From Enterobacterales bacterium (GTDB taxonomy: Bacteria > Pseudomonadota > Gammaproteobacteria > Enterobacterales > GCA-002770795): a stretch of DNA of 64,000 nt. Shown piece after piece: positions 3,631 to 62,788 of this stretch (its first letter is position 1; every line of letters begins with the position of its first letter). The stretch is taken from NCBI GenBank assembly GCA_041556195.1, contig JBFFIY010000001.1:31877-95876 (forward strand), read 5' to 3'. The notes beneath the pieces are model-generated. The model was given only the letters and a program-made list of their open reading frames with translations, was not told where the DNA came from and ran no database searches. A program made the translations under genes and the position numbers.

Positions 3631-3725
3631 AATAGAGTTTAAAGAAAAAGATTAATATGCACTTGTTTTCAAGGTTAATCCCTTTTAAACATCTCCTTAT
3701 TGATTTTATCAATAGATGTAGGGGC

Positions 3726-42982: not shown

Positions 42983-44509
42983 ATGCCATTACTCAGTTTG
43001 TTAATTTGGGTCCCGATTTTAGGTGCAGTTGCTATGGTTGTCATGGCAGGTGAAAGAAATCCGGGTCTATCCAAAGTCTTGTCCCTGTTTATTGGGCTAG
43101 TTACCTTTGCGCTTTCTTTGTCGCTTTATTCAGGTTTTGATAGCAGTACAGCAGCAATGCAATTTACTGAAACTGCCGATTGGCTGCCGAGTTTGGGCAT
43201 TCAATATGCATTAGGTGTCGATGGGTTTTCACTGCCTCTTATCATGTTGACATCTCTGATTAATGTGATTGTCATTATCGCTGGTTGGAATGTAATAAAA
43301 GATCGCCCTTCGTTTTATATGGCCGCTTTTTTAGTGATGACCGGTTTGATGAATGGTGTGTTTGCTGCACTTGATGCCATTTTATTTTATGTGTTCTGGG
43401 AAGGCATGTTGATCCCAATGTTTTTGATTATCGGGATCTGGGGTGGACCAAGACGCATCTATGCCACCATTAAGTTTTTCCTTTATACCTTTTTGGGTTC
43501 CGTATTTATGCTTATCGCCCTCATCTACATGGGCATTCAGCAGGGTAACTTCTCTATCCTGGGCATGCATAACCTGCCATTGAGTCTGGAAGCACAAACT
43601 TATATATTTTTCGCCTTCCTGATTGCTTTTGCCGTAAAAGTACCTATGTTTCCAGTACATACATGGTTACCGGATGCGCACGTTGAAGCACCTACCGGTG
43701 GTTCAGTGGTACTGGCAGCTATTATGTTGAAAATGGGAACCTATGGTTTCATTCGTTTTTCACTGCCCATTACACCTGATGCTGCCATGGAATATAGCTG
43801 GTTTATCATTGCCCTATCGTTAATTGCAGTAGTTTATATTGGTTTGGTTGCACTGGCCCAAAAAGACATGAAAAAACTTATTGCATACTCATCCATTGCT
43901 CACATGGGTTTTGTGACCCTGGGTTTCTTCATTATTTTTGCCTTAATGAGCGATAATTCTACAGATGCTGCTCGTATGGCGATGCAGGGTGGGCTGTTTC
44001 AAATGATATCTCATGGTTTTATCTCAGCAGCAATGTTCTTGTGTGTTGGGGTGCTTTATGACCGAGTTCATTCACGAAATATTTATGATTATGGTGGTGT
44101 GGTAAATACTATGCCTAAATTCGCTGCATTTTTTATGCTGTTTGCAATGGCAAATGCAGGTCTTCCTGGTACATCCGGCTTTGTTGGTGAATTTTGGGTC
44201 ATACTTGCAGCCTATCAGGCAAACTTCTGGTATGCAGTACTTGCTGGAACAACCTTGATTGTTGGAGCAGCCTATACTCTCTGGATGTATAAAAGAGTAG
44301 TTTTTGGTGATGTGATTAATGACAATGTTGCTAAATTGGAAGATATCAGTGGAAGAGAGACTTTATTCTTAACTGTCTTGGCTGTTGTTACCCTTATATT
44401 TGGTCTCTGGCCTCAACCTCTGGTTGAAGTCATGCAGGCTTCTGTTGAACATCTTCTACAATGTGGAATTCAATCTAAACTGCCTGGAATAACTGGAGTG
44501 TGCCACTAA
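42983..44509 (+). CDS. nuoM: NADH-quinone oxidoreductase subunit M
   Basis: FAVKVPMFPVHTWLPDAHVEAPT, YSSIAHMGF. Confidence 0.94.
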   Translation: MPLLSLLIWVPILGAVAMVVMAGERNPGLSKVLSLFIGLVTFALSLSLYSGFDSSTAAMQFTETADWLPSLGIQYALGVDGFSLPLIMLTSLINVIVIIAGWNVIKDRPSFYMAAFLVMTGLMNGVFAALDAILFYVFWEGMLIPMFLIIGIWGGPRRIYATIKFFLYTFLGSVFMLIALIYMGIQQGNFSILGMHNLPLSLEAQTYIFFAFLIAFAVKVPMFPVHTWLPDAHVEAPTGGSVVLAAIMLKMGTYGFIRFSLPITPDAAMEYSWFIIALSLIAVVYIGLVALAQKDMKKLIAYSSIAHMGFVTLGFFIIFALMSDNSTDAARMAMQGGLFQMISHGFISAAMFLCVGVLYDRVHSRNIYDYGGVVNTMPKFAAFFMLFAMANAGLPGTSGFVGEFWVILAAYQANFWYAVLAGTTLIVGAAYTLWMYKRVVFGDVINDNVAKLEDISGRETLFLTVLAVVTLIFGLWPQPLVEVMQASVEHLLQCGIQSKLPGITGVCH

Positions 44510-45948
44510 TGTTTTTATCGCCGGATCTCACTCCGCTATCAGCGGAAATATTTATGCTGGTCATGGCCTGTGTGGTTATGATTGTTGATCTGTACTTTGC
44601 TGATGCTGAACACCGTCTTACTTATTGGATAACTCAATTATCATTAGTTGTTGCTATTTTTATATCTGTTGATCAGCTTTCAACAGAAACGGCAGTTCTT
44701 TTTGATGGCACTTATATCGTTGATTACTTGGCAGGGATCTTAAAGATAGGCATTTATGTATCGGCTATGATTGCCTTACTCTATGCTCGTGACTATATCG
44801 CTGAAAGGAAATTTTTGCGCGGTGAATACTACATGCTCGCATTGTTTGCCGTTTTGGGCATGATGGTAATGGTTTCGGCTCACAACTTATTGACTATCTA
44901 TCTGGGACTTGAACTATTGTCCCTGCCACTTTATGCCATGGTGGCGATGGAACGTAACAACGGCAATGCTGCAGAAGCAGCCATGAAATATTTTGTGATG
45001 GGAGCCATTGCTTCTGGTTTCCTACTTTATGGCATGTCTCTACTTTATGGTGCCACCCAAACCCTGGATATTGCTACTCTGTCACAAGCCGTTGCAAATG
45101 TTGGTGATAATCAATTAATGGTTAACTTCGCACTGATGTTTATTGTGGCAGGGCTGGCCTTTAAGTTAGGTGCTGTTCCTTTCCATATGTGGTTGCCAGA
45201 TGTTTATCATGGAGCGCCAACGGCAGTCACCCTGTTTATTGGTAGTGCACCAAAAATTGCCGCCTTTGGTATGGTTATTCGCCTGCTGGTTCAAGGTTTA
45301 GAGCCGCTGATAGAACAATGGCAAACACTGTTGATGATTATGGCAATTTTATCAATGGCAGTGGGTAACATAGTTGCCATTGCCCAGCTCAATTTAAAAA
45401 GAATGCTGGCCTATTCCACCATTGCTCATGTAGGCTATTTTCTAATGGGTATTATCTCTGGTACAGATGCAGGTTATGCCGCTTCAATGTATTACATCCT
45501 TATTTACGCATTGATGACACTGGCCAGTTTCGGAATGATTGTATTCTTATCAAGAGCAGGATTTGAATCAGACAATATTAGCGACTTTAAAGGATTAGCC
45601 AGGCGCAGTCCCTGGTATGCTGCAATGACACTGTTCACCATGATGTCACTCGCTGGTGTACCTCCATTCATTGGTTTCTGGCCTAAACTGGAAGTCATTA
45701 TGGCCGCAATCAACGGTGGTTTTTTGAATATGGCCATTTTCGCAGTAGTAATGTCACTTATAGGCGCATTTTATTACCTGAGAATAATCAAAGTTATGTA
45801 CTTTGAAGATGCAGAAGAAACCATGAAACCTATCGTAGTAGCATCCGATGTCCGTTTGTTAATGATAATGAATGGATTGGCGATGTTAGGCTTAGGGTTA
45901 GTACCTGGCTGGTTATTGCAATATTGTTTAACGGCATTTGGTGTTTAA
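44509..45948 (+). CDS. nuoN: NADH-quinone oxidoreductase subunit N
   Basis: GAVPFHMWLPDVYHGAPT, YSTIAHVGY. ATG 44509 (TAATG overlap, GGAG 10 nt upstream) is preferred to GTG 44500. Confidence 0.93.
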   Translation: MFLSPDLTPLSAEIFMLVMACVVMIVDLYFADAEHRLTYWITQLSLVVAIFISVDQLSTETAVLFDGTYIVDYLAGILKIGIYVSAMIALLYARDYIAERKFLRGEYYMLALFAVLGMMVMVSAHNLLTIYLGLELLSLPLYAMVAMERNNGNAAEAAMKYFVMGAIASGFLLYGMSLLYGATQTLDIATLSQAVANVGDNQLMVNFALMFIVAGLAFKLGAVPFHMWLPDVYHGAPTAVTLFIGSAPKIAAFGMVIRLLVQGLEPLIEQWQTLLMIMAILSMAVGNIVAIAQLNLKRMLAYSTIAHVGYFLMGIISGTDAGYAASMYYILIYALMTLASFGMIVFLSRAGFESDNISDFKGLARRSPWYAAMTLFTMMSLAGVPPFIGFWPKLEVIMAAINGGFLNMAIFAVVMSLIGAFYYLRIIKVMYFEDAEETMKPIVVASDVRLLMIMNGLAMLGLGLVPGWLLQYCLTAFGV

Positions 45949-45979
45949 ACTCAGAAAAACCATTTAAATTATAGAGTCA

Positions 45980-46007
45980 AAAAAACCGCATTTATTGCGG
46001 TTTTTTT
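45980..46007 (+). terminator. nuo operon terminator (copy 1 of a duplicated hairpin)
   Basis: aaaaaaccgca tttat tgcggttttttt. A near-identical sequence ccgcattcattgcggtttttta occurs at 59312-59335. Confidence 0.75.
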
Positions 46008-46103
46008 ATGCCAGTAAAAGTGTCTTAGTTTGTCATATATGTGCAGGGCTTTATTTTATACGATTACTTGAATATCTCCTAATGTATATATATACTTTTA
46101 GAT

Positions 46104-46623: not shown

Positions 46624-47234
46624 TGTCATTCTTTGTCTTCAACAAATATCTTGTCGGCACGGAAGTAGCTAACCTCAATTCGGAATAAGCCAGGCCGCTC
46701 AATACAGTGATTTTCGTACCTTTCTGCGTTAAGTTTATTCAAAATAGCCAGTTACCCCAAACATGGTAAGTTGGTAATATATTGATTTATATAGGTTGAA
46801 TTAAACTATGTCATGTCGAATTTTTAACTTTTTGTGTAGAAGAGAGCATAACTATTCAATAGATATTTAGGGTAAGTCTATGGCTGATCTCGGATTTTTG
46901 GATAATCGATAACTTAATGCAAGGTAGTTTGTTGAGTTGTCCAGAAGGTCGTTTATTGTACATTTGAGTTTTTAACGCTTATAGTGTTTATCCTCAGACT
47001 TCCTATTACAATGAGAGCACAAAGATTAAATTCCAATTTTTGATTTTGTTTGGAAAGGGAGTGTAATAGCAAGAACAGACAAACAAAACTGTTTGTTAGT
47101 CTTTAGTAAGTATAACTTGGGTTTGTGTTGGATTTACCAACAAGTCATTAGTTAATTGAGTTACACGAACTTATACTTTAAAGATATCTGGTTGAAGGGA
47201 TAGAGGAAAAAACAAGAATACTTCAAGGAAATTT

Positions 47235-47840
47235 ATGGAAATAACAGAAGATAAAAAAAATAACATTGAAATTGCTGAATTCATCAAACAAACAAAAAAT
47301 TTAGATTGGTCTAATCAGATTGATTCATTGAATACATTACATGATGAAACAATCAGATTGATTATGTATCAAATCGCTTACTATGATGGAATTCGCCAAA
47401 AGCATAAAAAATTGTCGAAGTGGCTACGGATAGGAATGCTCATTTTTGGCGCTTGTGGAATGATTTCACCCCTCGCTGAAGGAACACAGTTAAATTTTCT
47501 TTCCCCATATGGTTACATATTACTTGTAATTTCTGGCGTTTTTCTAACAGCAGACAAGCTGTTTGGTGGTACTTCAGGTCACATCAGATATTCAATGGTT
47601 TGGTTAAAACTTGAAAAACTTGTTGCATCAAGAAGTCTTAAATGGAATGAATTGATAAAAAACCATCAAAATTCCGCCGAAAAAAACCAGACAGAAAATA
47701 AAATGTTTCAGTTTATTGTTAAGACAATAGAAGAATTATACGCTCTTATTTTAAATGAAACATCCGAATGGGATCATGCCCTTACTTCGGCGATTGAGCA
47801 TGTTGGTAAACAGATAGGTTCTAAACAGAAGGAGATTTAG
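47235..47840 (+). CDS. SLATT-like two-TM effector/accessory protein (RdrD-like position)
   Basis: 201 aa: N-terminal helix, two adjacent TM helices (WLRIGMLIFGACGMISPLA; YGYILLVISGVFLTADKLFG), helical C-terminus. AAGGAA SD. Sits directly upstream of the ATPase/deaminase pair. Confidence 0.55.
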   Translation: MEITEDKKNNIEIAEFIKQTKNLDWSNQIDSLNTLHDETIRLIMYQIAYYDGIRQKHKKLSKWLRIGMLIFGACGMISPLAEGTQLNFLSPYGYILLVISGVFLTADKLFGGTSGHIRYSMVWLKLEKLVASRSLKWNELIKNHQNSAEKNQTENKMFQFIVKTIEELYALILNETSEWDHALTSAIEHVGKQIGSKQKEI

Positions 47841-48096
47841 TATCAGTTTTAATATTATTCTTTCTCTAATTTGGGCTCAAAAAGAGGCTTCAACAAAATA
47901 CTCGATAATTATTAATAATCTTTATCTGGTTCAGGATGACAACACTTTGAACCCCGCTGTTAAGAACAGAAATGGTTCTTTGTATTATCTGTATTGAGTT
48001 CAAAAATAAAAAAGATATAAATAAAAGATTTTTACTAGAAAGTAATGTTCAGCTACAAAAATACTTTAAATTTTATCGTATTAAAGGAGTTAGATT

Positions 48097-51000
48097 ATGG
48101 GAAATAATGCTAAAGGGCCTAAAATTGTTTTGGATCGCTCGCGTAGATCACGAGCATTTGGAGATGATGAACGATTATGGAAAGATGACCTCAAACGTTT
48201 GGTTGATATGATTAAGACCCATGTGGATAGTCTTGATAGTAAAGTCTCAGAAAAGAAAGATGAAATTACTGATGAAAAACCAACGTTAGCAATTGCCATT
48301 TTCAGCCCAGCAGGTTCCGGTAAGAGTAGTCTATTAAAAACTCTGGTTTACGAAGCTCAGAAAGAATTTAAAAATAAGCAAGAAAATTTAAAAAACGTCT
48401 CTTCACTCGACATTCTTCAACCTGCACGTTTTGGTGATAACGGTCAGTTGGTTTATGCAATGGTAGCAGCAGGTCTTAAAGCTCATAAAGAAAAACGCGG
48501 AGAAGATCTGGATTATGATGTTCTCACACCCCTTCTCAAGAAATACCGAGCTCTTTCAGACGATTTGCGTATCATTAGAGGAGATAAGATCTCTGATAAC
48601 CTGGAGTCGCATGAACTGACGACTGAAGTTGTTTTAAGACACACAAGTGGTCTGAATATCGGAAAAAAAATAGAAGCTTTTGTTAATGCCTTGGCCGATG
48701 ATTTAAATTCTGAAAGTAATAATAACTCAGTGGTTTTGCTACCAGTGGATGATTTGGATCTTGATCCTGAACAATTGATAAAGGGTCTGAGCCAGCTTCA
48801 AGCCTATTTGCGCCATCCACGATTAGTGCCCGTTTTTTGTTTTACTGATGGTTTGGCTGAGGATATTCTTTCAAACCATTATATTCAATCATTAAAGAGC
48901 GCAGATAGAAAACGCCGCAATAATGGACAAATGGAAGCAAGCGAGCAGTTGGCTATTCAATATTTATCCAAATGTTTTCCTGTTCGTACTCGCTTGAGAT
49001 TAGGGGCTGTTCCAGCGTCTTTACAAACGGGGCAACTCAAGAAGAACACTAGCGGGGAAGAGCAAGAACAAGTACTCCATCTATTATTGGCGGCCAGCTT
49101 TTTACTTTTTGGTGTGAGTGATCGTGAAGCTCGACACCCTGTTCGTGCTGTTCTTCGTCCATCAACAGTCCGCCGTCAGTTTCATATCATTGATTCGTTA
49201 GAACAAGCAGGAGTCAAGAAACTTATTTGTCAGCAGATAATAAAGTCATACGATTCAAACAGTCCATCTTATAATGAGCTCAAAAAATCTTTAAAGTTTA
49301 CACGAAAATATCCATGGGTAAATTATTTTGATCGGGCAGTTTGGGGGGTGTTAAATGTTCATCGAGACGTCATTCAGGAATACGGAATGCAAATGGAAGA
49401 TCTTTATAGCTGGTCCCCTTCAGCATTACGCCGTGTTCTTCTTGATGCCCTTCTTGAGCTACCAGATAAAATACAATTTGGACTCTGGCGTCGTTGGCGC
49501 AATATGACAGATAGTCGTCATAATCAGGTGATTTCTCTTTTAGCGGCTAATACTCACAGACCATGGTTAATAGGCGAACGACCCAGCGGAGAAGACTATA
49601 GCCAGCTCATGATTGCTAAACAGGAAAAAAACGGAGAGGATCCTAATAAAATTTATGGGACAATAGATGCTTATTTGGCATTGCTCTGGTTTGTGAATTT
49701 AACCTTGGGTTTTTATTTACCATTGAACCGTTCAGTTTTTCGGGAGTTGAGGGAATCAAAACACAACAAGGAACATTTGGGGGCAACAGGGTGGTCCCTC
49801 CATAACGCAGCCATCCAGGCAATTCAAACAGCAGATGAGGATCGCGAGTTTTTCCCCACAGGTATGCTGTTTCTTGACTCTATATCTTATGCGACGGCAT
49901 TGACAACAACACCCAGAATGAATGCTTGTTATATCTTAGATGGCGTTATTACAGAATGTGCTGAAGAAAAATTATCGCTTAAGAAAGCTAAGATTGAAAT
50001 TTTAAGTAGACGAACAAATGCATTGTTGGGAGAGTATAAAAAAAATCCTGCTGACGCGATAGCTTCTTTTACAAAAAAACTATCCTTGAAGACCAAGAAA
50101 ACAGATAAATGGCTTGAAGGTGTAATAGAAGAAGCACTTGAAGCATATAAAGTGGCTGCAGACTTTGAGATAAAAGGAAAATTAACTGAAGAAGAAGAAA
50201 AAACAGATAAAAAAGTTAATAAGAGTACTTCCTATAAGAAGATTGAAACACTTGTTGAGACTTATTTAAAAAAGCATGAGTACACCAAAGCTTATGGGTT
50301 TATAAAGGAAGAATTAGATGAGGATGGAGATATAACTAGTTCAGAAAAAGAAATAATCAAAAAAGAACTGATAGAACTTAAAACAAGAGTCACTAGCCTC
50401 AAAGCCACTGCAAGAATGGTTCACGATGATCAATTTTTATTAAGGGTATGGACATGTCATGGTTATAATCGAGGGCGGTTTTGGGCTGCGGTTTCATTAT
50501 GGCGAGGACTGGGTTTGATAGGAGAATTAATAGAGTCACATAGGAAGTGGCAATCTGAAAATTCTGATAAAAAAAAGAGCGATAAACAAGACGATTCTAC
50601 AACTGAAGGTTCAGATAAAAAAGCTACACCGGATGAAATAATGGTGAAAAACATCATTGGTATTTTACATTCCCACTCCTTGAAAGGTCTTGTTCCGGGT
50701 AAAGGTTTGAGCGAGCCGTCTAGTCGAAGAGACACTCTGGAGTTGGCATTTCCTCGTTGGAATACGAAAAATCAAAGAGATGCTATTTTGCGCCTTGCTG
50801 CCAGGTTAAAAAATTGGCTGGATAGTGCTTCAGAATTCAAAGTCGCTCCCTTACAACAAAATAGTCAGGAGAGTAAGTTGGACTGGGGTCAATGTTTTAT
50901 CCGCAGATTACAAGGTGAATATATTGCTGGATCGTTATGGCAGTGGTTGGATGTGGAGCATTTCGAATATCAGGGCGATCAATATAATAAAAATAGGCGT

Positions 51001-51906
51001 TCTCAATGGAATGCGGGGGTTGCCTTGACGAGTTGGATCCGAGTGCTTCAACGTTATTTTAAAGGAAACAATGAAATTCGTTGGTTGTTGGATACTTGCC
51101 CACTAACCAGTCCTTTTTTATCACGTTCAGGAAGCGGTTTTCTTCATGCTCAGCTAAGTGAAAAACCCTATATCAAAGTGTTGGGTTACGTTAAATCACT
51201 TATTGAGGATGATGCAAAAAAGGATGCTGCAAAAGAGGATGATGCAGAAAAAGATGATAAAAAAGAACCCGCACTCATAAGAAGTGCCCAACAATTTAGG
51301 AAAATGAATGTTGCCATATTAGAGCTTTGGAAAAAAGAATCTAGCTGGGGCTCACCTACAAATCCTACACGAGAAGAGGCTAATATTTTTGCGAAAGAGA
51401 TCATTAATAATTTGCTTGGTATTGGTAGTAAACCTGGAGCAGAAAAAGAAAGGCTGGAAAAAATTTTTGGTAGTCAGAACTATTTGAAATTTTTTGATGA
51501 AAAAATACAGAATAATGAAAAAAATCTAAAATATTTTATTAGATTGTTAGATATTGCTAAAAATGTAAAGCTTTCACTGAAAAAACACAATAAGAATACC
51601 GAAGAGTACAATGATAGCTTCAATGAGCATTATAAACGGAGTTTATTGGATTCTTTTAATCCAAGAGTTGTGGAATCAGGTATCAAAACAGATTCTGATA
51701 TGGGGGATCAAATAATTGATAGTGCCAATGATGTTCTTGACAGAAAATCTGTCTGTTTTGAACTGGCCAATATGATCCTACAGTATTTGAAGGTATCCAC
51801 ACATGCATCTGCAGCCAGTTTGTTTTATCAGATCCCTCGTGTGCGACGCAGTGATTTCTTTGATGAAGAAAAGAAGAAAGAAGCGGATAGTGAAACACAA
51901 CAATGA
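48097..51906 (+). CDS. rdrA: RdrA-like large P-loop ATPase (RADAR ATPase component), unusually long with K/E/D-rich insertions
   Basis: AAGGAG SD. Walker A FSPAGSGKSS (48304-48327). Walker B VVLLPVDDLD (48730-48759). 1269 aa. ATGA overlap with the downstream deaminase gene. Confidence 0.7.
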   Translation: MGNNAKGPKIVLDRSRRSRAFGDDERLWKDDLKRLVDMIKTHVDSLDSKVSEKKDEITDEKPTLAIAIFSPAGSGKSSLLKTLVYEAQKEFKNKQENLKNVSSLDILQPARFGDNGQLVYAMVAAGLKAHKEKRGEDLDYDVLTPLLKKYRALSDDLRIIRGDKISDNLESHELTTEVVLRHTSGLNIGKKIEAFVNALADDLNSESNNNSVVLLPVDDLDLDPEQLIKGLSQLQAYLRHPRLVPVFCFTDGLAEDILSNHYIQSLKSADRKRRNNGQMEASEQLAIQYLSKCFPVRTRLRLGAVPASLQTGQLKKNTSGEEQEQVLHLLLAASFLLFGVSDREARHPVRAVLRPSTVRRQFHIIDSLEQAGVKKLICQQIIKSYDSNSPSYNELKKSLKFTRKYPWVNYFDRAVWGVLNVHRDVIQEYGMQMEDLYSWSPSALRRVLLDALLELPDKIQFGLWRRWRNMTDSRHNQVISLLAANTHRPWLIGERPSGEDYSQLMIAKQEKNGEDPNKIYGTIDAYLALLWFVNLTLGFYLPLNRSVFRELRESKHNKEHLGATGWSLHNAAIQAIQTADEDREFFPTGMLFLDSISYATALTTTPRMNACYILDGVITECAEEKLSLKKAKIEILSRRTNALLGEYKKNPADAIASFTKKLSLKTKKTDKWLEGVIEEALEAYKVAADFEIKGKLTEEEEKTDKKVNKSTSYKKIETLVETYLKKHEYTKAYGFIKEELDEDGDITSSEKEIIKKELIELKTRVTSLKATARMVHDDQFLLRVWTCHGYNRGRFWAAVSLWRGLGLIGELIESHRKWQSENSDKKKSDKQDDSTTEGSDKKATPDEIMVKNIIGILHSHSLKGLVPGKGLSEPSSRRDTLELAFPRWNTKNQRDAILRLAARLKNWLDSASEFKVAPLQQNSQESKLDWGQCFIRRLQGEYIAGSLWQWLDVEHFEYQGDQYNKNRRSQWNAGVALTSWIRVLQRYFKGNNEIRWLLDTCPLTSPFLSRSGSGFLHAQLSEKPYIKVLGYVKSLIEDDAKKDAAKEDDAEKDDKKEPALIRSAQQFRKMNVAILELWKKESSWGSPTNPTREEANIFAKEIINNLLGIGSKPGAEKERLEKIFGSQNYLKFFDEKIQNNEKNLKYFIRLLDIAKNVKLSLKKHNKNTEEYNDSFNEHYKRSLLDSFNPRVVESGIKTDSDMGDQIIDSANDVLDRKSVCFELANMILQYLKVSTHASAASLFYQIPRVRRSDFFDEEKKKEADSETQQ

Positions 51907-54827
51907 GCCGTTCTGAATTACCCCTCAAAGTTTTGAGTTTATTAGGGCCTATTTTATCCTGGGTGGAAGGGAGTGCAGCAACAGCAGTGCCCGAAGCATG
52001 GAAGGATAAAATTAGCAATGACAATATTAGAAGCCTAGCTTTTCAGTCTGATAATCAGCTCATCAGTTCATTGCAACAACGAGCCTGGTTGTTGCATGAA
52101 TTACCGACTTACTCCCTGGATAATGTGGATGAAATTATGGCTCTGTCTGGTCGGCCTAAGCCTTCTATGCCCGACAGTGCTCTATGGCTGCCGCTAAATA
52201 AGCAACTCAATCCTCCAACTGATTATAATTTGATTAATGTATTTCACCAATTAGCTCAGCGCTATCTTTGTTGGAATGGCAGTGAGGTAGTGATTAAAGG
52301 AAAGCACGTAATAGAGCTGCATGCACTTGGTTTACGTATGCCGCTTTCATTTATGGTGCAACATTTTTATGCTTGCTCGGTTGCCAGTGGAGAAAAAAAA
52401 CTGGAAGATGTTTCTGCATTGATTGAATCCATTAATCTGCTTTCTTCAAATTCAAGATCTATAAGTAATGTTATCAATAAGGGGCTCAGTGAGGGGCATC
52501 TTCATCTCAATTCAATCCATGCAACTGAAAATTCCTGGGCGGATCACCTGCTACTACCGATAGACACTCGGCCTAAACAATTCAGCGTAGTCGATTGGCG
52601 TTTATTGCGTTTTGGACGTGCGGTGGCTCGGACTCTGGCACTGGCAACTACTCTGGTTCGTGCTAATATTGAGATTTCTGCACAGGATGGTATAGCAATC
52701 CATAATGCTTTGGACAACATGTATTGTGCGAAAGATTTATCTTCAATGGAGGAATTTGAGCGACAACATCAAATATATTTTGATAATATCGTTCAAGATC
52801 CAAAGTTTTTTGGTGACTTAAGCTCAGTTGATAATTTGCCTGATGGGGAGTTTTTTTCAGACGGTTTTTCCAGAAGAAAGGTTAAAGGTCAGCGTTTCGG
52901 GTTATTTTATTGGCTGGATCCCTGGCGTCAAACAAACTGGCCAGTTTTTAATGATAACTCGAAGTACCCTAAGCTAAATAATTCCAATAAACGTAGGCGC
53001 TTTATTTCTAATTTGCATTTAGTTAGCCATTTGGCACTTTTACAAACCCCGCCAATAACGCATACCTGTGACAACTCTCATGATCAACATGATACAAAAA
53101 ACCATGCTACAGGCCGTTTTTTACACCGTTCGTTGTTCAGATATCTGATTGCGCAAACTCATCACTGGCAACAGGCTGTACAACAGGGACGAACCACTGG
53201 TTTACGTAATTTCAAAGTCTATTTTGATAGTAATCAACGAAACCCAATAGAGCCTACTGTCAGAGAAAATGCCGAGGCAGTCTTTAAGCAGATCAGCCAT
53301 TGGCAAGGTCTTGATGTGCTGGAAGGCCGAGTTAGCCCTCCCAGGATTCCAGCCAAAGATCTGCTTCCCTGGATCCAGGAATTTGTCAGAAAAATCAAAA
53401 ATGGGAATAAAATAAAAAAATTTGGCTTAGTGATTCATTTTATCAAAGACGAGGAACCCAAAAGTCATCGAGACGATTCATCAATACGGCTGGCTAGGTA
53501 TGGTTTATTACGTAAGAGATATCGGAGTGAAGCATTCCATCTTTATCATATTTTAAAAAAATCTTCTGTAGAAAATCCATTTATTGTTGGTATAGATGCT
53601 GCCAATCTTGAACTTGCAACACCTCCCGAAGTGTTTGCTCCTATATTTCGTTTTTTACGTGATGAGCCCATAGAAATACTTCGGCCTCAACGATTTGATA
53701 GTAATTTTGGAGATAACAAAAAGCTTCATTTGGCGATTAAACATTTGGTGCGACACAGGCATCTTGGTATGACTTATCACGTTGGTGAAGAATTCAGACA
53801 TATTTTATCAGGACTCAGAGCAATCGATGAAGTTTTAGAGTTCCTTAATCCCCGATCTGGTGACAGGATTGGGCATGGGATAGCTTTAGGATTAGAGCCA
53901 AAAGTATGGTTAGAGCAAACAGGATATCAGGCACTGATGCCTAAGCAGGAGTGGCTCGATACCCTCGTCTGGATTTTCCATTATCTGGGTTCGGGTGACG
54001 AACAGGTTAAAAGCTTAAATATAGAATATGAAATTGAGCGCCTTGCACGGGAGATTTATCAGCATGGAGGCGAGGATTCAAAAAACTCCATTAACCCTCA
54101 TTTATTATGGAATGCCTGGCTTCTTCGGCAACTTGATCCTGGATCTATTTACCTGGACGAAAAACTCAATAGTTTCCAATTTCAACCTTTAACTGGAGTA
54201 GATGCCGAAGCCTGGCGGTGGAACCGTATTACAAACAAAATAGTTAATGAAATTAATGAAAAAGTAGGAAATAATCCACCTTCTAAGCTTTTGAGCCAGT
54301 ACTGGTGTGATGCTAAAGTACGAGCCGCAGGTAACAAATTATGTCTGATTGATATGGAAGATGAGTCTGAGAATTGGCTTGAAATATGCCGAAAAGCACA
54401 AAAAATAATGCAAAATCGAGTGATTAAGCGTCAAATGGTTGTAGAAGTAAATCCATCATCTAACTTTAGTATCGGATCGATGAGTCGTTTTACAGAACAT
54501 CCTATTTTTAATATGGTATTTGATCACGAGGGAAATTGGCAACGCCGTTTGCGAGTTACTATCAACACAGATAACCCTGGAACTGCCAATACAAGTCTAT
54601 CCCATGAATATTATTTGCTGGGAGAGGCTCTCATGGGCATGGGACGACCTGAAAGCGAGGTCCTTGAATGGCTTGAATGGTTACGTCAATGTGGAGAAGA
54701 GAGCTCGTTTGTTCGCCACTTGCCAGAAATTGAGCACTGGGCTATGAAGACTGTTGTTGCTGAAATCAGAAAAACATTTCCAGGAAAGGATGGTATCTTT
54801 AAATGGTATAAATCAGAAAATAAATAA
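51903..54827 (+). CDS. rdrB: RdrB-like divergent adenosine deaminase (RADAR effector)
   Basis: All ADA-fold motifs in the canonical order: GHLHLN (HxH, 52497-52505), YHVGEE (53778-53789), DRIGHG (53862-53879), VNPSSN (54447-54464), NTDNPG (54564-54581). 974 aa. Confidence 0.75.
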   Translation: MSRSELPLKVLSLLGPILSWVEGSAATAVPEAWKDKISNDNIRSLAFQSDNQLISSLQQRAWLLHELPTYSLDNVDEIMALSGRPKPSMPDSALWLPLNKQLNPPTDYNLINVFHQLAQRYLCWNGSEVVIKGKHVIELHALGLRMPLSFMVQHFYACSVASGEKKLEDVSALIESINLLSSNSRSISNVINKGLSEGHLHLNSIHATENSWADHLLLPIDTRPKQFSVVDWRLLRFGRAVARTLALATTLVRANIEISAQDGIAIHNALDNMYCAKDLSSMEEFERQHQIYFDNIVQDPKFFGDLSSVDNLPDGEFFSDGFSRRKVKGQRFGLFYWLDPWRQTNWPVFNDNSKYPKLNNSNKRRRFISNLHLVSHLALLQTPPITHTCDNSHDQHDTKNHATGRFLHRSLFRYLIAQTHHWQQAVQQGRTTGLRNFKVYFDSNQRNPIEPTVRENAEAVFKQISHWQGLDVLEGRVSPPRIPAKDLLPWIQEFVRKIKNGNKIKKFGLVIHFIKDEEPKSHRDDSSIRLARYGLLRKRYRSEAFHLYHILKKSSVENPFIVGIDAANLELATPPEVFAPIFRFLRDEPIEILRPQRFDSNFGDNKKLHLAIKHLVRHRHLGMTYHVGEEFRHILSGLRAIDEVLEFLNPRSGDRIGHGIALGLEPKVWLEQTGYQALMPKQEWLDTLVWIFHYLGSGDEQVKSLNIEYEIERLAREIYQHGGEDSKNSINPHLLWNAWLLRQLDPGSIYLDEKLNSFQFQPLTGVDAEAWRWNRITNKIVNEINEKVGNNPPSKLLSQYWCDAKVRAAGNKLCLIDMEDESENWLEICRKAQKIMQNRVIKRQMVVEVNPSSNFSIGSMSRFTEHPIFNMVFDHEGNWQRRLRVTINTDNPGTANTSLSHEYYLLGEALMGMGRPESEVLEWLEWLRQCGEESSFVRHLPEIEHWAMKTVVAEIRKTFPGKDGIFKWYKSENK

Positions 54828-54911
54828 GATGGTAAGACTGCACAATATTTTTGGGTATCTATATATCTATAGTTTATATAGTGCTTATTTCAAAATATCA
54901 TCAAAATAACT

Positions 54912-55199
54912 ACAAGCAACATTTAATGAATTGATACGTCATTAACATGCTTAGTAGCAATTAACCCCCATTTATTGGTTTTAAGGAAAAAACATGAATC
55001 CAGATCTTACAAAAATAGGACGTTTTGATTGTTCATTTATAATAGTTATGATCAGGGATTTTTCCTGGTATTACTAGCAGTTGTGTTGTTTGAACTGGGC
55101 CTGCGATTTGTCATAGTTCTCTATGAATTTAACTACCCTCAGCAAAAAGAGACAGCCCAAATAGCCGAAGATCTGGCAGTAGATGTAGTTAATATTATG
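54912..55199 (+). repeat. Direct repeat, copy 1 (~288 bp): diverged duplicate of the promoter and 5' end of the 59429 gene
   Basis: Aligns with 59348-59635 at roughly 85-90% identity by manual alignment, including a 50-nt perfect core ttgtttgaactgggcctgcgatttgtcatagttctctatgaatttaacta. Confidence 0.9.
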
Positions 55200-55334
55200 G
55201 CTAATAAAAAATCCAATTCAAGTCCGGATTCAACTATAACAACACCAGCGATGCGCATTGGATTGGCGGACCAAGTTTTTGACGGAAGTGGTATATTAAA
55301 CTTCAACCTATATAAGAAAATTTTAAGTGTTTAA
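54994..55334 (+). pseudogene. Frameshifted, 3'-truncated fragment of the HAMP-domain gene (paralogous to 59429-60652)
   Basis: ATG 54994 gives MNPDLTKIGRFDCSFIIVMIRDFSWYY*. A T5 run versus T6 in the intact copy shifts the frame. The homologous frame continues as track ORF 55029-55334, then diverges after ..VDVVNIM. Confidence 0.8.
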
Positions 55335-55644
55335 TAAAAATATAAGAGGGATTCAAATGAATACTGGGGATTATAAAAAATACATCAAGGGAATCTTTGA
55401 TAATGTCTTTGTTTATAGCTTAATTGACACATTTTTCACCATACTTTATGCCAATTCATAATTGGGGGGGTAATATTTCTGTATACATTTGCAATTGGTG
55501 ATAGCTCGTTAATACGGGAAAAGCACATCTTAGTATCAGTTCAAATTTTTCTTGGTATTTATTTTTTTGTGATTTCAATTACTTCTCTTAACGCTTATAT
55601 AAAGTTTAAAAGGAACTTTGGAACCTCAAAGCAGGAATGAACCA

Positions 55645-58221
55645 ATGTTTGAACATATAAAGCAGGCACTGGAAAGAGAGGCTACTAGAGAAAGTCAGCA
55701 GGTAATCGACTCGATGAAAAACAGTGACTATCTCGCGATTTCCCATCACATTTCTTCTTTAATAATCGCTATTGTAGCTTTTTGTTTGATCGTGACAGCT
55801 GTGAGCATTTCAAGCCAAAAGGGTAGTGGCTCAGTCATCGGTTATGGATTGCTGCTAGTTGCTGCATTATTAGTTCTATTTCATGAAGCTAATAAGCGAA
55901 GAGTTAGTTATATAAACAAATATGCTTATCTAATTATCAGGATTAAGTGTTTTTGGATAAGACATTGGTATGCTGATTATTTAGCTAAGTATTTTTGGGT
56001 TAGTTTCGCTTTACTAATAATTATATTGGGAGCATTGCTACTGACACATGTTACAGGACAGAACGGGTGGGTTTTGCCAGAAGTTTATCAAGGTGAAAAA
56101 TTTTCTTCGTCAGTAAATATGGTCATAACTACCGCATCTGGGCTGCTCGCGGCTCAAATAGCTCTGTTTAGTTTCATGATGCAGCAAGTGCTAAGTAAAT
56201 ATTCTGGAGTTGTCGCTCAAACCGTTGCTAGCCATAGAGTATTTAAATTGCTAGCTCTTTTTCCTGCCTTAGGGTTATTAATTCCATTTGTGCTGCATAA
56301 CTTTGGTGCTCCTAAGTCGATTGAAAGTCAAATACTGCCAGTCATTGGTTTCATGTTGTTCTTAGGCCTTTTATTAACAGTCATGGTAGCCAAATCAGGA
56401 TTGAGTGAAAATCTTACCATTAGATACTTTGGTGTAGCCTCGTCAAATAAGCTTGTTAAAGCAATACCAACTCCTCTTAAAATGAATTCAAATTTTGCAA
56501 AGCGTTTGTGGAGGACTTTACATTATTTAGGATTAGATTTTAGAAATAAAGACCGTTTTCAAATTATCAATGTACCAGCAAACGGATCAAATATAACTAT
56601 GGAGTCGTTAAGTGCTGCATTAGGTGTAGCCAATAAGGCAGTAGTAGAAGGACAGCATGATGTCTTCGTTTCCAGTTTGATATCAATAGAAATAATTATG
56701 AAGGCCTATGCTGTTAGGCGAAAATTATATTGCAGCAGTGAAGATGAAGTGTTTATCTACCTGAATTATCAATTTGCCGCGCTAATAGAGTTGACGGCAA
56801 AAATTCCTAATCAATATTTAATATCCAATTTAACTAGTTCAATTGGCAAAACTGCAAAATTAACGTATTGCGTTGGTAACATACCAGAAGAGTTAGTTGA
56901 GGAGCACCATCATGAGAATGCTAATAACTTTGCAACTGCATTATGGATGGGGTTACTAGTCCAAAGCTTTGAACATACGCACACTCTGACCAGGAGCACA
57001 GCTGCACACGCCTCATTAAGACAAATGTCCGAAATAGCAAGCACATCTATTGCTAACAAAGATTCAGACTTAATAACCATTACTTACCTACCTTCAGTAA
57101 AGAAAGTATTTGCACAGTGCGTTGTAAGAATAGCGGACGCATATCATAAAGATCTAGCTGGGCAATGCCTAATAAATTTAATGTCGAATTTGATGAATAT
57201 TACGTTTTATCGAGATTCACTAAGGGGAACACATCAAGACTCTTTTGAAGAGGTATTAAACCATATCACTGAACTATCAAACCTTTATTTAACAGCCGAC
57301 TCAATGGGATCAATAACTCTAAATGACCCATTAAATATAGTCCTTAGCAAAACAGCCGAAAACCAATGTTGCATTCAAGAAGTATTTTTCATGATTGCTA
57401 ATAAAAAAATCAGCAATACTCACTCCTATCGAGTTGCCGTATCCGATATGGAAAAAATTGTTGATGAACTAGCGACTATGGGATGGTTTGCCGTAAATGC
57501 TAATGTATATACATCGGCATATTATTTAGAGGCTCTTTTTGAAATCCTTTATATAGTAACTAGAGGACTACCTAGTAAATTCGAAGAGTTTGATCAACTT
57601 GAAGTGCAGCAAAGAGCCCCGTTCGGGCTACCAGAAAATTCAATATCTACAGAACAAAGGCTGATTGAACATATATGCAATAAGTTAAATGAATTGGCTA
57701 CACTTTTCTATCAGTCACAACGAATGACTATAGATTGGCAACAGTCAGTGTATTCATCAATTGGTATATTGATATTGCGCTATGCCGAATGCCAAGAAGA
57801 ATTTATAAAAAGTAAAATTTCAGAAACAGTTCACATCATATATTCGCTTGTAAGATCTGACATTGAGTCCGGAAATCGGACTCAATACGATAGTGAAAAA
57901 TACCTTCAATTAGCAGCAGCCTGGATGAAATATTATGAAATAGATAATGACCTGACTGTCGAGATTGAAAATTTTCTAGCTAATAACAGAGGATACTATA
58001 GAGGTTATGGCGGCTCGCGGGAAAGGTATGGCTTATTCGGTTACCCAACGTTACAGCACTATGATTTTTACCTATATCCCCTAAAAAACATACGCCATCC
58101 ACAGATAATGTCTGAAGAGCATTGGCAAAATTTTAGAGATTTCGGTAATCGATTAGTAAACGATGATGTTCTTTTGCCGTTTGCTAATAACCTTAGGGAA
58201 ATGGCCGAAAATTTAGCTTAA
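55645..58221 (+). CDS. Large polytopic membrane protein of unknown function (about 6 N-terminal TM helices + ~570-aa helical soluble domain)
   Basis: ATG 55645 (AGGA upstream) is preferred to the track's TTG at 55618. TM helices include LIIAIVAFCLIVTAVSI, VIGYGLLLVAALLVLF, MVITTASGLLAAQIALFSFMM and ILPVIGFMLFLGLLLTVMVA. No catalytic motif recognised. Confidence 0.6.
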   Translation: MFEHIKQALEREATRESQQVIDSMKNSDYLAISHHISSLIIAIVAFCLIVTAVSISSQKGSGSVIGYGLLLVAALLVLFHEANKRRVSYINKYAYLIIRIKCFWIRHWYADYLAKYFWVSFALLIIILGALLLTHVTGQNGWVLPEVYQGEKFSSSVNMVITTASGLLAAQIALFSFMMQQVLSKYSGVVAQTVASHRVFKLLALFPALGLLIPFVLHNFGAPKSIESQILPVIGFMLFLGLLLTVMVAKSGLSENLTIRYFGVASSNKLVKAIPTPLKMNSNFAKRLWRTLHYLGLDFRNKDRFQIINVPANGSNITMESLSAALGVANKAVVEGQHDVFVSSLISIEIIMKAYAVRRKLYCSSEDEVFIYLNYQFAALIELTAKIPNQYLISNLTSSIGKTAKLTYCVGNIPEELVEEHHHENANNFATALWMGLLVQSFEHTHTLTRSTAAHASLRQMSEIASTSIANKDSDLITITYLPSVKKVFAQCVVRIADAYHKDLAGQCLINLMSNLMNITFYRDSLRGTHQDSFEEVLNHITELSNLYLTADSMGSITLNDPLNIVLSKTAENQCCIQEVFFMIANKKISNTHSYRVAVSDMEKIVDELATMGWFAVNANVYTSAYYLEALFEILYIVTRGLPSKFEEFDQLEVQQRAPFGLPENSISTEQRLIEHICNKLNELATLFYQSQRMTIDWQQSVYSSIGILILRYAECQEEFIKSKISETVHIIYSLVRSDIESGNRTQYDSEKYLQLAAAWMKYYEIDNDLTVEIENFLANNRGYYRGYGGSRERYGLFGYPTLQHYDFYLYPLKNIRHPQIMSEEHWQNFRDFGNRLVNDDVLLPFANNLREMAENLA

Positions 58222-58276
58222 CCTACTAAAAAATGAATACTAAATTATACGGCTAGCGAAAGAAGAGTGGATTTTT

Positions 58277-59167
58277 ATGGAATTAGCGACGATTAACAAA
58301 GAATTGGAAATGATCAATAGTGAACTTTCTGAAAGAGACGTACCTATTCATGCGCGTCCAATCCATGCAATTATGGAATTTGGTAAAAAACACAAATTAT
58401 CTCTCCCTATTGTTTCTACTGGAAGATCTTCTGCTGATAATAATTACCCAATTGAAAATGAATATATTACTGATGCCATTCATGCTTGGTATGAAAACAT
58501 GTATTCAGATTCATTAAAAATTGCGCCTGATATTGGAAAAACGCTTGTTCTTGTAAATGGCGACCCAATGGCTATGAGACTTCCATTGATCTATGGACAG
58601 TGTGAGATACAGTGGGATATTATTAAAACGGGGATTACAGGTGCAAAAGGATTTAATAAGGGGCCCAATATTCTAAATGTGATAGATGTTATTGATGGGC
58701 TTACTATTACAATGGCTAAAAATATTAGCCATGATGCAGCAAGAAACATTGTGCATTGGTTTCTTCAATCCTACGAAACACATAACTTTATTACCAATTT
58801 AGACCAGGCATTAGTCAAACAGGCTCTAACAGACTTAAAAGACGCTGTTTCGCATATAACTAGCCAACTTGCTAATTATGGGCAAGCTCGCTGGTCAACC
58901 CTTCAAGCCTGTGAAAAGTTGATGAAAGCCTACATGGTAGATAAAGAAATTCCTTATAGAAACGGTCACTATCTGGAAAAAGTTGCAAAAAATGCTGAAA
59001 TTGATTCTAAAGAAATGCTGTCTTTGTTGCCAGATATTCAATGTCCTGCAAGTGTTAGATATGGAGAAGTAAAACCGACCAAATTAGAGGCAATTAAGGC
59101 ATACCAATCCACAATGGTTTTCTTATCTTACCTGGTAAAAATGTGGCCGGTTAAAGGTTGTACGTAG
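58277..59167 (+). CDS. Unknown protein with a HEPN-like C-terminal domain
   Basis: The C-terminal ~70 aa follow the classic HEPN layout: DLKDA..., QACEKLMKAYM (58904-), GHYLEKVA (58964-), VRYGE (59054-59068). The N-terminal ~190 aa are unrecognised. Confidence 0.5.
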   Translation: MELATINKELEMINSELSERDVPIHARPIHAIMEFGKKHKLSLPIVSTGRSSADNNYPIENEYITDAIHAWYENMYSDSLKIAPDIGKTLVLVNGDPMAMRLPLIYGQCEIQWDIIKTGITGAKGFNKGPNILNVIDVIDGLTITMAKNISHDAARNIVHWFLQSYETHNFITNLDQALVKQALTDLKDAVSHITSQLANYGQARWSTLQACEKLMKAYMVDKEIPYRNGHYLEKVAKNAEIDSKEMLSLLPDIQCPASVRYGEVKPTKLEAIKAYQSTMVFLSYLVKMWPVKGCT

Positions 59168-59310
59168 TAAGTGTTTGTATTTATATAACTAATTGAATGA
59201 ATTTTGATTTGAAATAGTGCTACTTCAAGTAAATATTCGCAATAAAATCAATAAGTTTATAAATTGAAAAAGCCGACGCATAATGCATCAGCTCCAAGTT
59301 CAGTAAATAG

Positions 59311-59336
59311 CCCGCATTCATTGCGGTTTTTTATGT
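59311..59336 (+). terminator. Terminator hairpin, duplicate of the nuoN terminator
   Basis: cccgca ttcat tgcgg + T6. 59312-59339 matches 45986-46013 with 2 mismatches and 1 indel by eye. Confidence 0.7.
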
Positions 59337-59347
59337 CCAAAAAACCA

Positions 59348-59635
59348 ACAAGCAACATTTAATGAGTTGATACGTCAGTAACATGTTTCGTAGTAATTAA
59401 CACCATTTTATGCTTATAAGGAAAGAACATGGCGCCAGATTTTACAAAAATAGGACGTTTTGACCGTTCATTTATAGTAGTTATGATCAGGGATTTTTTC
59501 CTGGTCTTATTGGCTGTCGTATTGTTTGAACTGGGCCTGCGATTTGTCATAGTTCTCTATGAATTTAACTATCCTCAGCAAAAAGAAACTGCACAGGTGG
59601 CCGAAGACCTGGCTGTTGATGTAGTTAACATTATG
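59348..59635 (+). repeat. Direct repeat, copy 2 (native promoter and 5' end of the HAMP gene)
   Basis: Partner of 54912-55199. Confidence 0.9.
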
Positions 59636-60652
59636 CGTAATAAGGGCGGACCGGTAGCCTCTAGTACATTTTACCCAATATTGAAAAAAAATCACGAAGC
59701 TATAGGTTATGAAGTTTCCATAGAACCGTCGGACGAAACCGTATCATCCATAGAAAAAATATTTAGTTTTACCCCAAGAGGTATTCCAGCCGAATGGTCT
59801 ATAGGCAAATTTCATGAAGAAACCGTTGAAATACGTGCGGATAAATTTTGTTTATCTTGTCACATTGATGCTAAATTAGGTGCTGTTTTAGGAAAAATAA
59901 AAGTTAGAAGTTACCTAAGCCATCATCTTGAGAGTTGGTGGGCCGAAGTGGGTTTAACCGCTGTATTAGGTTTGGGTAAAATATTATTTCATACCACCAT
60001 TTTATTCTTTTTATTAAAAGTTAGAATGGAACCCATGTTATCTTTACGTTCAGTGGTGGCATCCCTGGCAAAAGCAGGGGCAGATCTACATCATCGTGCT
60101 ACATTAAGATCTGAAGATGAGTTTTCCGAACTTGCCCGTGACTTAAATCACTTCCTTGATCGTTTGTGTTTAATATTGGAAGATGTTGGTAACGTATTAG
60201 AAAAAATTACAGTGTTAAATTTACGATTAACTCAGGTTAACTCTCAAATAGAAAATAAATTTGAAGTTATTCAGGGGTTATCTCAACAAGCAAACAAAGT
60301 GATGTTTGAAGGAAACACGCGTTTACCTCTGTTATCGTTTGAGTGGAAAAATTCAATGCAATTGGCGTTAACTATGTTAAAAAATTCAATAGATGATCCT
60401 GAAAAACTTGTAGAATTTGATATTAAAATGGAACAAATCTGGCAGCAGTTTGACGCAACAGCAGCTCAACTGCAAAATTTGAATCAGAGCCACAATAAAG
60501 CGAGTGAAGGGTTAACTCATATGAATTCAGAGTTACATGATTTTGAGCATTACCTGACAGAAATGAGTCATCTTGAAGAAAAAATGGAAAATATTTCTGA
60601 GCAGGGACAAAAATTAATCAATAGGTTAACTGGAAAATCAATTGAGTCATAA
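59429..60652 (+). CDS. Membrane protein with a CxxCH-containing periplasmic loop, HAMP domain and C-terminal coiled coil
   Basis: TM1 FFLVLLAVVLFELGLRFVIVL. FCLSCHIDA (CxxCH). TM2 LTAVLGLGKILFHTTILFFLL. HAMP-like MEPMLSLRSVV...EDEFSELARDLNHFLDRL. Confidence 0.65.
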   Translation: MAPDFTKIGRFDRSFIVVMIRDFFLVLLAVVLFELGLRFVIVLYEFNYPQQKETAQVAEDLAVDVVNIMRNKGGPVASSTFYPILKKNHEAIGYEVSIEPSDETVSSIEKIFSFTPRGIPAEWSIGKFHEETVEIRADKFCLSCHIDAKLGAVLGKIKVRSYLSHHLESWWAEVGLTAVLGLGKILFHTTILFFLLKVRMEPMLSLRSVVASLAKAGADLHHRATLRSEDEFSELARDLNHFLDRLCLILEDVGNVLEKITVLNLRLTQVNSQIENKFEVIQGLSQQANKVMFEGNTRLPLLSFEWKNSMQLALTMLKNSIDDPEKLVEFDIKMEQIWQQFDATAAQLQNLNQSHNKASEGLTHMNSELHDFEHYLTEMSHLEEKMENISEQGQKLINRLTGKSIES

Positions 60653-62335: not shown

Positions 62336-62788
62336 ATGAATACTAAACAAAGTAGTGAAACCAAAGGTTTCGATTTTTCAAAAAAGCATAAAGTCTCCGT
62401 GTGGGTATCTCAGAACCCCTATGAAACAATTCCAGATGAATACTTCGAAGAAAACTTTAATCATAAAGAAACCCGTGCCACCAATCAATGGTCAGATAAT
62501 TTTAAAATGAATTATTTTAACCCGGAAAACATGGAAACCAATGGTGCACAAGAAGGTACAGTATCGATCAAACAAGCCGCTGGACAATGCTCATTTTCTT
62601 CATCATATATTGATGTATTAATGAGCAAATCGAGAAAAAAGAATCTGGAAGATGTTAGCTGGATTGTTTTGTTGTTTGAATATGAATACAGCATGAAAAC
62701 CACAGGTATAGAGAAAGATGAATACCTGACTTTCTTGGGAGCTTTTGATTATGATGAAGAAGCGGAAAATGTTTATGAAGTTGAATAA
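62336..62788 (+). CDS. Imm22-like polymorphic-toxin immunity protein (orphan)
   Basis: KVSVWVSQNPYETIPDEYFEENF...SDNFKMNYFNPENME follows the pattern I recall for Imm22 proteins (vS.W.G.f.s.eel.eY.e...f..dF.i.y.d.d..E). Confidence 0.5.
   Translation: MNTKQSSETKGFDFSKKHKVSVWVSQNPYETIPDEYFEENFNHKETRATNQWSDNFKMNYFNPENMETNGAQEGTVSIKQAAGQCSFSSSYIDVLMSKSRKKNLEDVSWIVLLFEYEYSMKTTGIEKDEYLTFLGAFDYDEEAENVYEVE

Follow-up and report, generated by a model that had tools for sequence, protein, structure and literature searches.

Diverged copies of a terminator–HAMP gene segment at stacked cargo blocks downstream of nuoN in an Enterobacterales bacterium

How do clusters of defence genes without mobility genes come to be assembled between conserved chromosomal genes? 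This question is considered open (PMC10250203), and it was raised again by a locus in an Enterobacterales bacterium (GTDB lineage Enterobacterales; GCA-002770795), which lies in a stretch of 64,000 nucleotides (nt) of contig JBFFIY010000001.1 (assembly GCA_041556195.1, positions 31,877 to 95,876 of the forward strand). The whole stretch is called the window, and the positions given below are counted from its first nucleotide. Two blocks of cargo genes stand here between nuoN and an intact gene for a HAMP-domain membrane protein (the HAMP gene). The layout had been proposed from the sequence in an original prediction and was confirmed by domain annotation: nuoN and its terminator (term1) are followed by a toxin–antitoxin (TA) pair of the RelE/helix-turn-helix (HTH) kind, a SLATT_2 gene, and RdrA-like and RdrB genes, which make up island 1, and then by a 5' copy of the HAMP gene (HAMP'), the second block (cassette 2), a second terminator (term2) and the intact HAMP gene. 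When the open reading frames (ORFs) between 45949 and 59428 were scanned against Pfam, NCBIfam and PADLOC, none matched an integrase, transposase or resolvase. In our judgement it is fairly probable that two haplotypes of the nuoN-HAMP site, each with its own cargo, were merged by recombination between related lineages.

The repeated segment and its two alleles

Repeat search and pairwise alignment identified direct repeats at 54899/54902-55207 and 59335/59338-59643, which are 306-309 nt long, about 87% identical and share a perfect core of exactly 50 nt. The repeats of about 290 bp, with 85-90% identity and a 50-nt core, that had been predicted were thus borne out; their predicted extent (about 80 nt of upstream region and about 69 codons) proved too short, each copy containing 92-95 nt 5' of the start codon and codons 1-72 of the HAMP gene. 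The similarity lies outside low-complexity sequence, a check that the original prediction had proposed, and no other long repeat was found in the window; repeat and duplicated terminator both exceed chance by far. The copies differ by two 1-nt indels, one in non-coding sequence near 54966-54970 and one in a coding T-run at 55059-55063, where the left copy has T5 and the right copy T6. Starting from its ATG at 54994, the left copy is frameshifted, as foreseen, and its reading frame hits a stop at 55075-55077 (codon 28). The duplicated nuoN terminator that had been placed at 45986-46013 and 59312-59339 is also real. A motif search recovered CCGCATTNATTGCGGTTTTTT on the plus strand solely at 45986 and 59312, with 0 occurrences expected by chance (an additional hit at 45980 is its own palindromic reverse-strand match), and the terminator homology spans 45975-46013 and 59302-59339. 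Since nuoN of the nearest relative has an unrelated terminator, the duplicated one is not a generic motif. When island 1 is removed, term1 and the left copy are collinear with term2 and the right copy. The unit in question would then be a segment consisting of the nuoN terminator, an upstream region of about 95 nt and the 5' part of the HAMP gene, with term1 and the left copy forming allele alpha and term2 and the right copy allele beta.

The divergence between the copies was alike along the whole segment: 4 of 28 positions in the terminator, about 14% in the upstream region and 12.5% in the coding part. The 27 coding differences were distributed over the codon positions as 7:2:18, a third-position share that departs from a uniform distribution (P = 4e-4). 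Among the 72 codons compared, 16 changed codons were synonymous and 6 non-synonymous; dN/dS was 0.11 (NG86) or 0.14 (YN00), with dS of 0.42-0.51. Based on the third-position bias and the low dN/dS, the copies are diverged alleles of two lineages and not a decayed internal duplicate, and the comparison supports the view that their differences built up under purifying selection. If the segment of about 330 bp had instead been duplicated in situ during insertion of cassette 2, by template switching or otherwise, with the copies diverging only afterwards, about 57% of the differences would be expected at positions 1 and 2 of a neutral truncated copy, and the mean dN/dS would be at least about 0.5. 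The former share was 9 of 27 (P about 0.01), the latter value stayed at 0.11-0.14, and the likelihood ratio was 3-30 in favour of two selected lineages over in-situ duplication and decay. Bacterial genomes are known for a deletion bias, which runs against long survival of unselected fragments; with a dS of about 0.5, both an unselected 300-nt fragment and a frameshifted cassette would have had to persist for a very long time. What speaks for such an origin is the left copy itself, whose changes, polarised by outgroups that are distant and saturated at synonymous sites, fall on all codon positions (4:2:6, as against 1:0:6 for the right copy) and are accompanied by the frameshift. Later decay of one of two alleles is expected to leave the same extra changes at positions 1 and 2 and the same frameshift, and we regard the in-situ origin as very unlikely.

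These results agree with the original prediction that the copies derive from different genomes and not from a recent internal duplication. Its further claim of a foreign left copy was not upheld. The layout is symmetric, and the left copy forms one collinear haplotype with term1, the neighbour of the nuo operon, which means that this copy might just as well be the resident allele. The import could be either nuoN'-term1-island 1-HAMP'(1-72) or cassette 2-term2-P-HAMP, where P stands for the upstream region. The 50-nt identity would arise with P about 0.02-0.03 if divergence were uniform, and the core is a plausible crossover or gene-conversion tract. Identity profiles against the HAMP relatives of 67-76% identity mapped no crossover position.

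Joints of cassette 2 and the proposed merging of haplotypes

The homology of cassette 2 to its closest DNA relative (L012/L013, 73% identical) is bounded by the left and the right joint. At the left end, homology to the HAMP gene stops and homology to this relative starts within ATTATGGCTAATAA, whose ATG serves as codon 69 of the HAMP gene and also opens the first small ORF of the cassette. The HAMP allele (CGTAATAAGG) and the sequence upstream of the small ORF in L012 (TTTAATAAGG...ATGGC) likewise share TAATAA; this possible microhomology of ATG and TAATAA was judged from the L012 version of the cassette. The right joint lies in the left arm of term2, which reads ..AGCCCG/CATTC.. (the slash marking the joint) where term1 reads ..AAACCG/CATTT... 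Because homology to L012/L013 begins at the left joint and ends at the CCG of the terminator arm, both joints cut into unrelated contexts. Island 1 extends from a point no more than about 10 nt beyond the T-run of term1 to about 54897, and cassette 2 meets the terminator arm, so the nuoN-HAMP spacer of about 150 nt was hit at two points that lie about 25 nt from each other.

The right end of the cassette consists of a hairpin (59269-59295) and a 23-24-nt tail (59291-59314). The best fold of the hairpin is that of the minus strand, on which a U-run comes after it, and its stem sequence differs between the window and L012 (3296-3341) with pairing kept. The tail is identical to L012 3318-3341, though the neighbouring genes are 73% identical, and a partial direct copy of it occurs about 60 nt upstream (59233-59246). 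From their sequences, hairpin and tail look like the 3' end of a minus-strand transcript that was cut by the joint. Considered as the end of a repeated element, the 23-nt tail was found neither in viral contigs nor in any other locus nor in the rest of the window. An integron cassette, which a promoterless start and a 3' hairpin might suggest, was rejected as well: GTTRRRY does not match the tail, an inverse core site to go with it was not evident in the sequence that was read, the unit comprises 4 kb and several genes, and no integrase was present among the ORFs examined (42983-63760).

How could two haplotypes have given this arrangement? Lineage alpha would have carried the TA, SLATT and RADAR-like block directly 3' of the terminator, and lineage beta would have carried cassette 2 in the terminator's left arm. 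Their merging would have taken one homologous exchange, inside the shared segment of about 330 nt or further into the HAMP gene or nuoN, and one illegitimate joint at 55197-55210, which fused HAMP codon 69-72 to the start of the first small ORF of the cassette. Two routes are compatible with this. In the first, a circularised molecule of cassette 2, term2, P and HAMP(1-72) would have entered by a Campbell-type single crossover; in the second, a linear fragment would have entered by homology-facilitated illegitimate recombination (HFIR). In either case, the displaced 5' fragment would then have been inactivated by the frameshift, with the other copy keeping the HAMP gene intact. The layout fits the Campbell-type or homology-facilitated insertion of the original prediction, in that a single homologous exchange and one illegitimate joint suffice and the island holds no recombinase. 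Since no recombinase gene is found in the island, host recombination functions would have done the work. The right copy continues into the intact gene, which is consistent with homologous exchange at that end. We rate the Campbell route somewhat higher than HFIR, because canonical HFIR deletes DNA and does not duplicate it.

A related two-step history was also considered, in which cassette 2 first inserted at codon 69-72 of the resident HAMP gene and inactivated it, and an imported terminator, upstream region and 5' HAMP part, joined at the right end of the cassette, later repaired the gene. This would account for the match of both cassette ends with the limits of L012 homology, and for the retention of an intact gene copy. 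However, three illegitimate joints and two transfers would be needed, whereas one exchange and one joint suffice for merged haplotypes, and no remnant of HAMP codon 73 onward is present beside the right end of the cassette. We therefore give the two-step history little probability.

The displaced host copy, the cargo and the gene-restoring copy also form the layout of elements that target gene ends. Accordingly, site-specific integration of a 4.4-kb element (55208-59643) could be imagined, whose attP carried the terminator, the upstream region and HAMP 1-72, whose integrase was encoded elsewhere, and which pushed the 5' end of the host gene leftward. Each repeat finishes with short stretches that are identical in both copies (GATGTAGTTAA, ATTATG, TAATAA); in a test for an att core, identical runs of only 6-11 nt were seen near the right ends and no inverted arm-type sites were identified. 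Relatives of the 858-aa gene of cassette 2 occur in elements with integrases or serine recombinases. On the other hand, no recombinase gene lies in or beside the segment, the right end of the cargo joins mid terminator stem and its left end joins an ORF start codon, and the same cargo ends run into unrelated DNA in L012. A search for a second instance of the 4.4-kb element found none at any site. A recombinase hidden in cassette 2 was ruled out, since the ORFs of 55208-59300 gave no library match to one and the model of the 858-aa protein is all-helical without a recombinase fold. Site-specific integration thus seems improbable.

Several points weigh against the merging of two haplotypes as reconstructed here. 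Canonical HFIR yields deletions and the locus shows a duplication, while the Campbell route needs a hypothetical circular intermediate of undocumented origin. L012 and L013 are the same sequence, and the cargo boundaries consequently rest on a single comparator. The selection test covers 72 codons and gives moderate support, and its polarising outgroups are subject to the saturation mentioned above. No genome or contig with a pure haplotype, an empty site or alternative cargo was found in the collections searched, so that the two-haplotype history rests on one sequence. A scan of genome contigs with the HAMP protein gave no relative with the locus, and of the 542 HAMP homologues found, the nearest (76% and 67% amino acid identity) stand in other contexts and not beside nuoN. 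Nothing closer than 76% to the left-copy allele as a full-length gene was present among 5.8 billion clusters, and a scan of metagenome contigs with the HAMP alignment returned just the known 76% relative in its different context. With nuoN, 80 loci were obtained from genome contigs (nearest 79% and 72% identity), none of which is followed downstream by the HAMP gene, kynureninase or any gene of the island; in comparison with the nearest relatives (L014, L015), synteny stops at the nuoN stop codon. Lastly, the source contig probably derives from a metagenome assembly, exact-protein look-up of the junction ORF recorded the joint of HAMP' with cassette 2 in the NCBI contig only, and the path across the perfect core was seen in the source contig only.

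This last group of points would also fit an assembly artefact, in which co-existing strains were joined across the 50-nt core and island 1 and cassette 2 lay on separate chromosomes. Three contigs from an independent assembly of run SRR29257296 were 100% identical to 42298-46714, 47016-48474 and 56557-59551. They confirmed the nuoN-term1-TA junction and the cassette 2-term2-HAMP junction, and all junctions other than the left joint were matched at 100% by contigs of the same run. One of them (L175) breaks within the core at 59551, which is in line with an artefact and is also expected of a k-mer assembler meeting a repeat. Against an artefact, 14 of the 72 nt that separate core and joint (55136-55207) are different in the right copy, and this stretch runs straight into cassette 2. 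The HAMP' fragment is thus truly joined to the cassette in some genome, and an assembly switch at the core cannot have created this joint; it would alter the left-hand DNA only and not the existence of the duplication. An artefact is distinctly unlikely.

Genes of the two cargo blocks and their relatives

Cassette 2 begins with a 45-aa ORF that is homologous to the 41-aa ORF preceding the module in L012, followed by genes for a 93-aa membrane protein, an 858-aa protein and a HEPN-domain protein (table 1). The ATG of the 45-aa ORF is codon 69 of the HAMP' fragment, and since the joint lies at this start codon, cassette 2 is without an upstream region of its own. No terminator-like site was found on the plus strand between 54900 and 55650, which makes read-through from the left copy plausible. 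A consensus scan detected no strong sigma-70 site in the duplicated upstream segment and located promoter-like sites in the coding part of both copies only (55025-55052 and 59460-59487). A promoter captured with the left copy, as put forward in the original prediction, may plausibly drive cassette 2. In the 93-aa gene, an insertion of two nt (AA near 55453), which none of the relatives shares, leads to a stop at 55459, and because of this frameshift the module may be inactive in the source genome.

The 858-aa protein combines an N-terminal multi-pass membrane region with C-terminal alpha-helical repeats. It had no match in Pfam, NCBIfam, PADLOC or PDB sequences, Foldseek with its predicted model gave generic repeat proteins as the sole fold matches, and 10 distant family members contained no known domain when scanned against Pfam. 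The family is rare: clustering at 90% (5.8 billion clusters) gave 9 proteins, and clustering at 50% identity (1.84 billion representatives) gave 89 clusters. In L006-L013, the 93-aa gene is intact and is separated by 4 nt from the large gene downstream, and in L174 a 72-aa gene overlapping the large gene takes its place. The gene pair stands beside a large serine recombinase and an integrase fragment in L006-9, beside an integrase, ArdA, GmrSD and a resolvase in L174, and within a Salinimonas iocasae island with TerB-domain, BrxC/BrxD-family and DEAD-helicase genes in L011. Because the pair sits in mobile elements or islands in these relatives, cassette 2 is regarded as foreign cargo; and since its settings are always mobile elements or defence islands, the small membrane protein and the protein of about 860 aa form a candidate, uncharacterised anti-phage module. 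The HEPN gene is a nested extra gene compared with the L012 cassette, as the region 3' of it aligns with the L012 region after its 858-aa gene. Its family is very small (7 proteins) and is represented in L177 by a solo gene. Searches for cassette 2 on plasmids or phages gave no match.

Could cassette 2, together with its host-derived arm of about 330 nt, be a recombinase-free mobile unit? Recombination between the repeats would loop out a circle, and its re-entry into the same locus in related strains by a single homologous crossover would restore an intact HAMP gene every time. If this were true, a homology-armed defence cassette would be spreading within the genus by host recombination alone, but we consider it unlikely.

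Island 1 contains a divergent RADAR-like pair, with a SLATT_2 gene 5' of it. The RdrA match is limited to the N-terminal 300 of 1269 aa and reaches 64 bits in NCBIfam, where the cut-off is 600. A target-site duplication around island 1 was looked for, and merely a degenerate overlap of about 6-12 nt was seen, which is too weak to call. Just left of the left copy, 54878-54890 matches the right arm of the terminator at 9 of 13 positions (ATAGTGCTTATTT vs ATTGCGGTTTTTT). This match, likewise too weak to call, is a possible degenerate remnant of that arm; if it is real, terminator sequence would flank island 1 on both sides as well. Beyond the right flank, a gene for Immunity protein 22 (DUF4284; 62336-62788) lies shortly 3' of the HAMP-kynureninase pair, and the ORFs examined include no toxin gene adjacent to it. 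Elsewhere in the window, an intergenic motif (TTTGGCAGGATTAGACGAAAATTTGTCT...) occurs three times (3593-3642, 3940-3989 and 9471-9520), flanking very large ORFs (8-3289 and 4919-9238), and may be a shared regulatory site.

Table 1. Features of the nuoN-HAMP locus, in window positions.
Feature	Position	Strand	Evidence
nuoN, last nuo operon gene, left conserved flank	44500..45948	+	Pfam Proton_antipo_M, E 1e-76
term1, nuoN intrinsic terminator, allele alpha; stem-loop 45986-46000 and T-run	45979..46013	+	Motif search, alignment
RelE/StbE-like toxin	46104-46376	+	NCBIfam TIGR02385, E 2e-7
HTH antitoxin	46366-46623	+	Pfam HTH_3, E 3e-12
SLATT_2 membrane protein	47235..47840	+	Pfam PF18183; NCBIfam NF033633, E 4e-20
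RdrA-like, 1269 aa, divergent RADAR-like pair	48097-51906	+	PADLOC RdrA, E 2e-10
RdrB, 974 aa, divergent RADAR-like pair	51903-54827	+	PADLOC RdrB, E 7e-34, 115 bits; A_deaminase domain
Left copy, HAMP allele alpha pseudogene fragment (upstream region and codons 1-72)	54899..55207	+	Alignment, reading-frame check
50-nt identical stretch, candidate crossover/conversion tract	55086..55135 (right copy 59522-59571)	+	Alignment
Illegitimate joint zone HAMP'/cassette 2, ATTATGGCTAATAA	55197..55210	+	HAMP homology stops, L012/L013 homology starts
45-aa small ORF	55197..55334	+	Alignment to L012
93-aa membrane-protein gene, frameshifted	55357..55640	+	Comparison with relatives
858-aa protein	55645..58221	+	AlphaFold2 (AF2) model, pLDDT 73, all-helical
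HEPN-domain protein, 296 aa	58277..59167	+	Pfam HEPN, E 1e-4
Cassette right end, hairpin and tail	59269..59314	.	Folding, L012 alignment
term2, nuoN terminator allele beta; cassette joint in left arm	59305..59339	+	Repeat search, motif search, alignment
Right copy, upstream region and codons 1-72 of intact HAMP gene, allele beta	59335..59643	+	Alignment
Intact HAMP-domain membrane protein gene, 407 aa, right flank	59429..60652	+	Pfam HAMP

Comparison with known systems and meaning of the seam

Cargo between conserved flanks without mobility genes is also found in the 'minimal mobile elements' of Neisseria, for which exchange through flanking homology was proposed. Genomic islands accrete in tandem at tRNA genes with duplicated tRNA 3' ends (Williams 2002, as cited in PMC10250203), a process that is integrase-mediated and involves identical att cores. 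The present locus resembles such accretion in that two islands are kept apart by an incomplete copy of the target gene, with an intact copy at the outer end, and is unlike it in that neither identical att cores nor integrase genes were found. In experiments with E. coli, single crossover with a circular molecule gave inserts flanked by duplications of the homologous segment of 109-950 bp (PMC3240628). Direct duplications, of about 310-330 bp, flank the insert here as well, and no site-specific recombinase is needed; unlike in those inserts, the copies are alleles that have diverged by 13%, the circle is hypothetical and the insert is without plasmid functions. HFIR combines one homologous and one illegitimate end (PMC3240628), and its description is credited to de Vries & Wackernagel 2002, Prudhomme et al. 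2002 and Meier & Wackernagel 2003, as cited in PMC5361080 and PMC3240628. The locus may share with HFIR one homologous end and one end at a short shared sequence (ATG / TAATAA), and as in HFIR foreign DNA is trapped beside a conserved gene. However, recipient DNA between anchor and joint is lost in canonical HFIR, whereas the joint here lies inside the anchor-homologous region and gives a duplication.

HFIR-type stacking of modules was proposed for type VI secretion (T6SS) and Rhs arrays (PMC5361080). As in the displacement arrays of T6SS, Rhs and contact-dependent inhibition (CDI) modules, modules are stacked at one locus with conserved-gene remnants between them and alleles from different strains (PMC5361080). 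Those arrays keep displaced 3' ends and immunity genes, whereas here it is a 5' end, displaced together with its upstream region and belonging to an unrelated sensor gene, that separates anti-phage cargo. A further likeness is that to cDHS1/2 of P. aeruginosa (PMC10250203), where defence cargo lies between conserved flanks without mobility genes and exchange through flanking homology was proposed. Flank-mediated exchange of this type is expected to be scarless, whereas a scar is present here, and the status of a hotspot, with cargo that varies among strains, is putative for this locus.

What, then, does the locus tell us about the assembly of defence-gene clusters? It is a clear and well-resolved example of a known recombination process in such a cluster, and not a new principle. 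Exchange via flanking homology is normally traceless, whereas here a diverged 5' fragment and a second terminator allele mark the seam of two cargo blocks. Under the two-haplotype history, the seam would show that blocks from two lineages, about 13% apart in DNA, were stacked by host recombination and not by an integrase. Moreover, the small membrane protein and its partner of about 860 aa form a recurring uncharacterised module, which may be tested as a candidate anti-phage system.

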